Shown one piece after another: positions 13,267 to 19,568 of a stretch of 34,014 bases of DNA. The notes beneath the pieces are model-generated. The model searched no databases. It had not been told where the DNA came from and saw only the letters and a program-made list of their open reading frames with translations. Where the stretch lies: contig CAYUOK010000003.1 of the NCBI GenBank assembly GCA_964446395.1, positions 1 to 34,014 of the forward strand. Reading direction: 5' to 3'. A program made the position numbers and the translations under genes. Numbering within the stretch: position 1 is the first letter of the stretch; the number at the start of each line of letters is the position of its first letter. This stretch comes from an uncultured Gemmatimonadaceae bacterium. Lineage in GTDB: Bacteria; Gemmatimonadota; Gemmatimonadetes; Gemmatimonadales; GWC2-71-9.

Positions 13267-14198
13267 AACCGAACCGGATCCGCGGCTGGCACCAGTCCTT
13301 CCGCGGATTTCTCGGCCGCACGCTGCAGGCAGCCGACGAAAACCACGTCCCCTTCCTGGCGAGCGCGCTGACCTTCGACGCGCTGCTCGCCGCCATTCCC
13401 TTCGTCCTCCTGCTCCTCGTCGGCCTCACCCAGGTGGCCCAGCCCTGGGCGGGCCCCGGGGCGGTGGACCTCCCGCACTTCTTCGAGGGCTTCCTCCCGC
13501 CGCACGACACCTCCGCGGGCCGCGACCCCTTCTTCCTGCTGGAGGAGGTTCTCGGCCGGATCGCGGAGTACGGCAGCAAGCTCTCGCTCTACGCGGTGCC
13601 GGCCTTCCTCTGGTTCAGCACCCGGCTCTTCGCCAGCATCCGCACCGCCCTCAACCAGATGTACGACGTAAGCGTGCGCCCGCCGGTGCGGCGCCACTTC
13701 CTCGTCAGCTACCTGCTGAGCAAGCTGCGCGACGTCGTGATGGTCATCATCACCCTCGGCGTCTTCGTCGCGAGCACCGCCATCAGCGCGGCGGTGGGCA
13801 TCGCCCGGGCCTACGGCGAGGCCGACTCCCCGGTGCTGCGCTTCTTCTTCTCGTCGCTCGGGCGGTGGATCCCCGAGCTGCTCAGCCTCTCGCTCACCTT
13901 CACCCTTTTCTTCCTCATCTACCGCTACGCCTCGGTCCGCCGCATCGACACCCGGGCGGCGCTCGTGGCGTCGGCGTTCGGCGCCGTGGCGTGGGACGTG
14001 GCGAAGCGGCTGTTCGCGATGTACCTGGGGAAGGTGGCGACGGTGGAGACGGTGACGGTGGACTTCCACCTGACCGCGATGGTCCTCACCGTGCTCTGGG
14101 TGTGGTACACAGCGCTGGTGTTCCTGCTCGGCGGGATCGTGGCGGAAACCTGGCAGCTCCGCACCATGCAGCAGGAACAGCGGGCGATCCTTACCTAG
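13263..14198 (+). CDS. YihY/BrkB (ribonuclease BN-like) family membrane protein; start codon uncertain
   Basis: 'FLASALTFDALLAAIPFVLLLLVGL' is the YihY family N-terminal signature, followed by multiple TM segments. No ATG/GTG/TTG lies in frame near the expected N-terminus. The nearest candidate is CTG 13263, which overlaps the ytxH stop (CTGA). Confidence 0.75.
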   Translation: MKPNRIRGWHQSFRGFLGRTLQAADENHVPFLASALTFDALLAAIPFVLLLLVGLTQVAQPWAGPGAVDLPHFFEGFLPPHDTSAGRDPFFLLEEVLGRIAEYGSKLSLYAVPAFLWFSTRLFASIRTALNQMYDVSVRPPVRRHFLVSYLLSKLRDVVMVIITLGVFVASTAISAAVGIARAYGEADSPVLRFFFSSLGRWIPELLSLSLTFTLFFLIYRYASVRRIDTRAALVASAFGAVAWDVAKRLFAMYLGKVATVETVTVDFHLTAMVLTVLWVWYTALVFLLGGIVAETWQLRTMQQEQRAILT

Positions 14199-19067: not shown

Positions 19068-19568
19068 CTAGAGGCCGGTGTAGACCACGTTCAGGGTAAT
19101 CGTCCCGCTGTAGGCGCCGGCCGCCTGCGCCACCGTCGGCTGGACCGTCGCGCCGATGAAGAGGAAGCGGTTGCCCGTCGTGGCGTCGAGGGTCGCGAGG
19201 GTCGCGGCCGCGCTCGGCGTGAACCCCGTGCCGCCGGTGGTGTTGGTGTTGTTATGCTCGCCGGTCCAGGTGGCGATCGCGAGCGTGCCCGGGCCGGTCA
19301 GGTTCGTCGGGAGCGTGAAGGTCATGCTCACCTGGGAGCCGGGGTTGCCGGCGATCGTGAACCGACCGGAGGTCGCGTCCGCGGCGGCCACGGTCTTGTT
19401 GATGCCGGGGAAGACGTTCCCGAAGGCGAGGTTCGCCGTGCCGGTCAGCGTCAGGGGCGTCAGCACCGTCGCGGTCGCGGTGATGTTGGCGCTCTGCGCC
19501 TGGGCCACGGAGGTCCCGACGAGGGCGAGGGCCAGAACGGCGAGGGACAGCTTTGAGGCGGTGTGCAT
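19068..19568 (-). CDS. DUF4402-like secreted subunit (paralog 1, 166 aa; candidate major pilin)
   Basis: Internal ATG 19568 of track ORF 19068..19874 gives MHTASKLSLAVLALALVGTSVAQAQ (signal peptide). Motifs ANLAFGNVFPGINKTV, GRFTIAG, TFTLPT and C-terminal AQAAGAYSGTITLNVVYTGL are present. It is the first gene of the operon and is followed by a hairpin. Confidence 0.7.
   Translation of the reverse strand: MHTASKLSLAVLALALVGTSVAQAQSANITATATVLTPLTLTGTANLAFGNVFPGINKTVAAADATSGRFTIAGNPGSQVSMTFTLPTNLTGPGTLAIATWTGEHNNTNTTGGTGFTPSAAATLATLDATTGNRFLFIGATVQPTVAQAAGAYSGTITLNVVYTGL

Follow-up and report, generated by a model that had tools for sequence, protein, structure and literature searches.

The closest functional analogues of the system described here are the archaic chaperone-usher systems and the single-domain Caf1 polyadhesin. 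Archaic systems, namely Csu of Acinetobacter baumannii (CsuA/B, CsuC, and CsuD), CupE of Pseudomonas, and Mcu of Myxococcus, combine small subunits with one chaperone and one usher. They are given for Proteobacteria, Cyanobacteria, and Deinococcus-Thermus, a list in which Gemmatimonadota does not appear (PMC4654587), and their pili form a zigzag rod through a twin-hairpin "clinch" contact between the subunits (PMC9452303). The Caf1 system (Caf1, Caf1M, and Caf1A; the F1 antigen of Yersinia pestis) is a classical FGL (F1-G1 long) polyadhesin. Here we analysed a five-gene operon on the minus strand of a 34,014-nt stretch of DNA from an uncultured Gemmatimonadaceae bacterium (contig CAYUOK010000003.1). 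The whole of this stretch is called the window; its guanine-plus-cytosine (GC) content is about 71%, and residue numbers refer to its proteins. The operon very probably encodes a complete, strongly diverged chaperone-usher system, in which subunits of the DUF4402 family would be assembled into a thin surface fibre (pilus or polyadhesin). Its genes, in order of transcription, are as follows.

19068-19568, minus strand: S1, a DUF4402 protein of 166 amino acids and putative major pilin, composed of a Sec-type signal peptide, the donor-strand-like N-terminal extension QSANITATATVLTP, a predicted immunoglobulin (Ig)-like pilin core, and the C-terminal motif AGAYSGTITLNVVY
18539-18994, minus strand: S2, a DUF4402 paralogue without the N-terminal extension, putative tip or initiator subunit
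17692-18525, minus strand: chaperone-like protein of 277 amino acids, carrying a signal peptide and predicted to be periplasmic and to have two beta-rich halves
17177-17695, minus strand: S3, a DUF4402-like paralogue of 172 amino acids with the N-terminal extension, putative minor, adaptor, or terminator subunit
14191-17175, minus strand: outer-membrane usher of 994 amino acids, identified from its predicted structure

The original prediction, made from the letters of the window, had proposed five co-directional minus-strand genes with coupled junctions, and all of these are present in the list of open reading frames (ORFs): S3 and the usher are separated by a stop codon, 1 nt, and ATG (17177/17175), the chaperone and S3 genes share an ATGA overlap (17692-17695), and a 13-nt gap (18526-18538) lies between S2 and the chaperone. 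The intergenic gap between S1 and S2 is 73 nt. S2 has 151 residues with a GTG start, or 146 if counted from Met6. The GC content at third codon positions is 0.92-0.95 in all five genes, which is the coding signature of a 71% GC genome. The four smaller proteins carry ordinary Sec-type signal peptides, as read from the sequence, and no lipobox was seen when their sequences were inspected by eye; a lipoprotein or type V pilus was dropped from consideration because the sequences have no lipobox.

The predicted structure of the 994-residue protein supports its identification as an outer-membrane usher with the full usher architecture. Residues 171-994 were modelled with AlphaFold2 (AF2) from a 96-sequence alignment, giving a predicted local distance difference test score (pLDDT) of 86 and a predicted template modelling score (pTM) of 0.73. 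The modelled chain begins with a beta-rich N-domain (model residues 1-120) and a helix; six long strands follow, then an insert of six strands (255-330), another 18-20 long strands, and finally two C-terminal beta-sandwiches (approximately 660-740 and 749-821). This arrangement, in which a plug-like insert interrupts a barrel of about 24 strands between strands 6 and 7, is the usher plan. In a Foldseek search of the PDB, the top 18 matches were all FimD or PapC (E=2e-25 to 1.6e-10, probability 1.0), with 12-15% identity in alignments that cover the whole chain. SdrD, LptD, and porins came next, all weaker than E=1e-9 and matching only in part. An LptD-like or porin-like barrel was rejected because the FimD/PapC matches are at least 15 orders of magnitude better and extend over the whole chain.

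Two parts of the usher deserve separate description. The plug-like insert (window approximately 15676-15903, minus strand) has the lowest pLDDT of the model, 44-55, and is rich in residues that are invariant across the 96 homologues (YGENPVDF.AYGP.G..R.FN). Upstream of the modelled region, residues 1-170 (window 16666-17175, minus strand) comprise a conserved hydrophobic segment of about 45 N-terminal residues (MLVGLLAKLVA...GGEKFVSLLDK) and a Pro/Ala-rich linker of about 130 residues (43 Pro in 144 residues), which has a conserved RPTRGALRP motif and precedes the N-domain. Within the close clade, both the segment and the linker are conserved; in other clades, a similarly long linker is present or is missing altogether. 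The segment may be either a cleaved signal peptide or an inner-membrane anchor. Speculatively, the two together could form an uncleaved inner-membrane tether across the periplasm. We know of no usher with a tether of this kind.

The three small proteins had been proposed to be paralogues, and BLASTP connects S1 with S2 at E=7e-13 and S1 with S3 at E=1e-15. The S1/S3 alignment takes in the N-terminal extension, and the S1/S2 alignment begins only downstream of it. The motifs NL.F..V..G...TV, G.(F/V)R(I/V)AG, FTLPT, and the C-terminal G.Y.G.I.L.V.Y are common to all three. Against DUF4402 (PF14352; Pfam gathering threshold 25.2 bits), S1 and S2 exceed the threshold with 29.6 and 27.4 bits, respectively; S3 reaches 16.2 bits, under the threshold, yet it is a clear paralogue of S1. 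All 52 aligned members of the subunit family match DUF4402. Matches to Spore Coat Protein U (SCPU, PF05229), the subunit family of the archaic systems, were absent from S1, S2, and S3 at E<=1 and weak in the family (11 of 52 members, best E=0.055).

The AF2 model of mature S1 (pLDDT 94, pTM 0.85) supports a chaperone-usher pilin fold. Mature residues 1-15 lie outside the regular fold with lower confidence, and the conserved ITLNVV forms the last strand. Of the best 50 Foldseek matches in the PDB, nearly all were chaperone-usher pilins, including CfaB, the PapG pilin domain, FimG, FimF, PapE, CsuA/B, PapA, Caf1, and FimA; the top match was CfaB (E=9.7e-4). In profile comparisons with hhalign, the subunit family aligned with CsuA/B, FimA, and Caf1 over the C-terminal strands only or not at all, and none of the alignments was significant; the C-terminal strands of Caf1 (E=0.034) and CsuA/B (E=0.2) were positionally right. 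The Caf1 and CsuA/B reference sequences are exact matches to the PDB chains 1z9s_B and 7zl4_A.

The free N-terminus of S1, QSANITATATVLTP, has an alternating hydrophobic pattern and is followed by strand A, LTLTGTA. The comparison among related genomes is stronger evidence than these matches: 83 S1-type and 14 S3-type genes keep, behind the signal peptide, an alternating extension of about 14 residues, and in about 65 S2-type genes the cleavage site directly abuts strand A with no extension. As far as the sequences allow a judgement, this pattern of presence and absence fits donor-strand polymerisation, with S2 as the probable distal tip because the tip of a donor-strand-linked polymer must accept a strand rather than donate one.

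The 277-residue protein is most likely the pilus chaperone, as suggested by family-level comparisons. PapD_N (PF00345) was matched by 45 of 133 diverse family members, with a best E of 1.4e-6, and PapD_C (PF02753) by none of the 133. A profile search of 1.84 billion representative sequences brought up 2214 clusters related to it at E<=1e-3, of which 416 reached E<=1e-30. The best profile match was Escherichia coli EcpB (hhalign E=1.4e-4, probability 53%), and this alignment places P94 on EcpB Pro60 and R125 on EcpB Arg89. P94 is conserved in 133/133 members and is the sole fully invariant residue of the family; R125 is present in 132/133. The proline in strand D1 (Pro59 in CsuC and Pro60 in EcpB) is the sole residue invariant in all chaperone-usher chaperones (Pakharukova et al., PMC4654587). 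The strand-F arginine of domain 1 (Arg89 in CsuC and EcpB), which binds the C-terminal carboxylate of the subunit, is the most characteristic residue of archaic and alternative chaperones (PMC4654587), and a Tyr/Arg pair of domain 2 completes the carboxylate clamp (CsuC Tyr196/Arg174 and EcpB Tyr169/Arg148). The candidate residues for this pair in the present family are Y225, found in 116/133 members, and R204, 21 residues upstream, found in only 43/133. With FimC, the whole N-domain was collinear, including the A1 and G1 strands (hhalign E=0.007, probability 5%), and the G1 strand LTLEVRTVIAVVY was set against LQLAIISRIKLYY of FimC. This alignment came from the broader of the chaperone alignments (A5); the narrow alignment gave nothing against FimC. 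The classical Arg8/Lys112 pair is not matched, FimC Arg8 falling on A30 and Lys112 on A159 in the low-confidence hhalign alignment.

The predictions made for the individual proteins can be judged from these results. The usher-like assignment is borne out by the barrel with its plug and by the FimD/PapC matches, and the subunit assignment by the modelled pilin fold of S1. Both the usher-like and the PapD-like assignments were at first made at the level of motifs; the latter gains from the family's links to PapD_N and from its alignment with EcpB and FimC at the diagnostic residues. Most of the anticipated Pfam matches failed to appear: DUF4402 was found in S1 and S2 (below threshold in S3), while Usher, PapC_N, and PapC_C were absent and PapD_N appeared only at E=0.25. 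The overall proposal of a chaperone-usher system built on DUF4402 subunits stands, in that the usher model, the pilin fold of S1, the profile links of the chaperone, and the extension pattern agree.

The gene set is conserved well beyond the window. A scan of one genome per species, with a DUF4402-relative search pattern specific to the window's clade, yielded 79 loci, almost all in metagenome-assembled genomes of Gemmatimonadota. The order subunit(s)-chaperone-[subunit]-usher is kept in about 70 Gemmatimonadota genomes. The commonest order is S1-S2-chaperone-usher (31 loci), and variants carry an additional S1 gene or, like the window, have S3 placed between the chaperone and usher genes; S3 was found in a minority of the related loci. 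Distant loci (usher identity 34-36%) retain the same gene set in other genomic contexts, such as L082 (4176-8913; DUF4402, 280-residue, 150-residue, and usher genes) and L083 (101-4803; 177-residue, 169-residue, 284-residue, and usher genes). The chaperones and ushers of these two loci have no Pfam matches or faint ones. All named homologues in public annotation are from Gemmatimonadota, and tblastn of S1 across 72,556 plasmids gave no match.

On one side, the operon is neighboured by genes for pyruvate kinase, an aldolase, YtxH, and a BrkB-family protein, and on the other by the signal recognition particle (SRP) RNA gene ffs, dnaX, ybaB, and recR. The BrkB-family/dnaX flanks recur in about eight related genomes with dnaX identity down to 62%. 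The operon looks vertically inherited rather than an island, because its GC content equals that of the flanks and its position is syntenic in related genomes; a recently acquired island was ruled out on the same grounds. The locus had been described as an accessory-looking block among housekeeping genes, which holds for its function and does not hold for its composition or its place, since the GC content is that of the flanks and several relatives have the operon at the same BrkB-ffs-dnaX site.

From the computed folds of the usher and the pilin, the composition and conservation of the operon, and the extension pattern, we infer the following course of assembly. All five products would be exported by Sec. 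The 277-residue chaperone, presumably of two-domain PapD-like fold, would cap each subunit, its G1 strand LTLEVRTVIAVVY filling the groove of the missing seventh strand and R125 holding the subunit's C-terminal carboxylate in place. The 994-residue usher would serve as a gated outer-membrane pore. S2 would enter first and become the distal tip because it has no N-terminal donor strand. S1 subunits would then join singly, the extension of each (ITATATV) displacing the chaperone strand of the previous subunit by donor-strand exchange, and S3, where encoded, would act as a minor adaptor or terminator subunit.

Several results weigh against a chaperone-usher system at this locus. The 994-residue protein has no match to Usher (PF00577), PapC_N (PF13954), or PapC_C (PF13953) in Pfam at E<=1; its only matches are CarboxypepD_reg (residues 904-965) and SdrD_B (residues 812-851), both C-terminal. 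The precomputed Pfam annotation of 120 usher homologues likewise contains Usher, PapC_N, and PapC_C in 0/120, and public annotation calls the homologues hypothetical or "carboxypeptidase regulatory-like domain-containing". Sequence and profile searches of PDB chains recovered no usher with the 994-residue protein and no chaperone or pilin with the chaperone and the subunits; taken together, they yielded only C-terminal sandwiches (NOMO2 and SdrD) and the YadV chaperone at E=0.28. The hhalign comparison of the usher family with FimD was not significant (probability 0.5%), though the aligned segment was right, the LTLG..TGP..RG motif and the insert being placed on the FimD plug region. The window chaperone scores 11.8 bits (E=0.25) against PapD_N, below the cut-off of 23 bits, its C-terminal half matches generic Ig-like and fibronectin type III (Fn3) models only, and the hhalign probabilities with EcpB and FimC, given above, are modest. 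The Foldseek E-values of S1 are also modest, 1e-3 to 1e-1, with TM-scores (template modelling scores) of about 0.4-0.53. Moreover, we know of no organism with this operon in which such fibres have been observed.

Among other explanations, the one that survives best, unlikely as we consider it, is that the same machinery lays down an amorphous capsule- or coat-like layer of DUF4402 subunits, after the example of Yersinia F1 (Caf1) and the Myxococcus Mcu spore coat, which likewise depend on a chaperone and an usher. The subunits are all single-domain and no two-domain adhesin is encoded; the N- and C-terminal motifs of S1 are most like those of Caf1; and the lineage carries the operon as a conserved, core-like trait, not as a variable island of adhesin genes, all of which would suit a coat. 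A coat and a thin fibre look alike at the sequence level, however, and the dedicated extension-less subunit S2 suggests ordered, tip-initiated polymers, as expected of the fibre that we favour. Less probable still is that the 994-residue protein is a pore of usher fold through which DUF4402 proteins, perhaps binding proteins exposed at the surface, are exported singly or as short oligomers, with no donor-strand polymerisation. Polymerisation itself is deduced indirectly and the Foldseek support for the pilin fold is modest, which leaves some room for such a pore, but the conserved alternating extension and its absence from one paralogue in about 65 genomes would be hard to explain, and every usher system known to us exports donor-strand-linked polymers. 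Hardly any weight can be given to the view that the genes do not form one system, with the large protein an unrelated LptD- or porin-like barrel bearing carboxypeptidase-regulatory-like domains and the small ones unrelated secreted proteins: the public annotation and the missing Usher match would agree with it, but the usher matches exceed those of LptD and porins by the margin given above over the whole chain, and the genes are conserved strictly as a set, coupled junctions included, in 70+ genomes and in different contexts.

The thin-fibre system can then be compared with each known class. With the archaic systems it shares, in addition to the set of components, the strand-F1 arginine of non-classical chaperones (PMC4654587). 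The subunit C-terminal motif QAAGAYSGTITLNVV resembles KAQGDYKDTLLVTVN of CsuA/B, a protein that is also among the structural matches of S1, and both the archaic systems and the window operon are found outside Proteobacteria. The differences are that archaic subunits are SCPU proteins, whereas those of the window belong to DUF4402 with only the weak SCPU and CsuA/B similarities noted above; that the window usher has no PF00577, PapC_N, or PapC_C match; and that the operon has no two-domain tip adhesin such as CsuE. With the Caf1 system, the window operon has in common that only single-domain subunits are encoded. The donor strand of Caf1, TATATLVEP followed by ARITLTY, is similar to TATATVLTP followed by LTLTGTA in S1, the last two strands of Caf1 align with those of S1, and Caf1 is among the structural matches of S1. 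Unlike those of the window, the Caf1M and Caf1A families are recognisable by Pfam; the classical Arg8/Lys112 pair is not found in the window chaperone, according to the low-confidence FimC alignment; and the Caf system has no separate extension-less subunit corresponding to S2.

Among the alternative pili (EcpA-E of E. coli and CFA/I, CfaA-E), EcpB is the best profile match of the chaperone and CfaB the top structural match of S1, but the subunits and ushers have no significant sequence similarity to those of the window, and the candidate for the clamp arginine of domain 2 (R204, as above) is not conserved in the window family. Type 1 and P pili (FimD/FimC/FimA and PapC/PapD/PapA) have the same usher domain order, barrel-with-plug, and assembly logic, and supply the best structural matches of the usher; the identity is the 12-15% given above and no hidden Markov model (HMM) match was obtained. 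Unlike FimD and PapC, the window usher has a long Pro-rich N-terminal extension, and its C-terminal domains score with CarboxypepD_reg and SdrD_B instead of PapC_C. Judged by these comparisons, the system does not show the sequence features that define the archaic class, SCPU subunits and an usher recognised by Pfam; it appears to lack the classical chaperone residues and to share the non-classical arginine.

The mechanism proposed here is a known one; new are the three component families outside current models, a phylum absent from the list in PMC4654587, and the function suggested for DUF4402. The earlier suggestion of a distinct lineage is upheld to the extent that the usher and the chaperone both escape standard HMMs and that the subunits are not detectably SCPU proteins. 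We further suggest, tentatively and with slightly less than even confidence, that the system is a separate deep branch of chaperone-usher pathways outside the classical, alternative, and archaic classes, native to Gemmatimonadota and equipped with usher, chaperone, and pilin families of its own. In that case, the whole DUF4402 family would be an unrecognised pilin family and the known phylogenetic range of the pathway would widen. The chaperone-usher reading offers a concrete, testable role, as pilin or fibre subunit, for a domain whose function is not known, and it extends the pathway to Gemmatimonadota, a phylum common in soil and wastewater of which few members have been cultured. HMM-based surveys would miss the system because neither the usher nor the chaperone passes the family thresholds. 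Its conservation across many Gemmatimonadota species makes a part in attachment or aggregation probable. No relevant paper came up in literature searches for DUF4402, PF14352, or chaperone-usher systems of Gemmatimonadota, and none in the library searched mentions DUF4402 or PF14352. Automatic names based on COG (Clusters of Orthologous Genes) already hint at the link: at JGI, several homologues of the chaperone go under "P pilus assembly chaperone PapD" and some of the subunits' homologues under "spore coat protein U-like".

Three further features of the operon may concern its expression.

19874-19903, minus strand: promoter-like element read from the sequence, TTGCGC, 18 nt, and then TGTTATAAT (extended -10)
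19569-19867, minus strand: conserved leader (5' untranslated region) of about 300 nt upstream of S1
19010-19048, minus strand: stable GC-rich stem-loop directly 3' of the S1 stop codon

The promoter-like block is near-identical in the related loci L002, L003, and L073; a consensus scan passed over the element, whose -35 hexamer matches at 3/6 positions. The leader was found by nhmmer in the close clade only (the window, L002, L003, L073, and L058). It contains several conserved hairpins, with no convincing covariation across four sequences, and an Rfam search of the leader gave no riboswitch or other RNA, the sole match being the adjoining SRP RNA. The 86-nt gap downstream of S1 has a folding energy of -59 kcal/mol (z=-4.4), and 0/200 shuffles fold as well. 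Gaps downstream of S1 with z < -2, relative to mononucleotide shuffles, were found in 55/72 related loci. The stem-loop may act as an attenuator or an mRNA stabiliser favouring S1, and such a hairpin would be in keeping with S1 being made in excess as the major subunit; the pap and fim operons are arranged similarly.

Between the promoter-like site and ffs, G-rich octamers repeated in tandem (GCGGGGAC/GCGGGGCA) form, together with their complements, a long imperfect inverted repeat (19916-19992 and 20078-20142 of the window). Similar octamers occur in different numbers in relatives, such as L002; a role in regulation or in repeat-number variation is only a guess. The ffs gene, encoding the bacterial small SRP RNA (20159-20256, plus strand), was identified with 41.5 bits, the gathering score being 40. 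The longest dnaX ORF starts at 20224, so that its first 33 nt lie within ffs, and therefore the true start of dnaX is probably a later Met at about 20296 (MAIALARRYRP...).

Two observations lie apart from the operon. A 4.9-kb contig of 55% GC binned as Taibaiella helva (Bacteroidota) contains, at 2645-4461 (locus L064, JBEBVI010000352.1), S1-, chaperone-, and S3-like genes at 31-43% identity, which points either to an occurrence of the system outside Gemmatimonadota or to a mis-binned contig. In the window, a Roadblock/LC7-domain gene followed by a gene for a small Arf/Ras-like GTPase is located downstream of recR (23165-24347, plus strand), a pairing known from MglB/MglA-type polarity modules.

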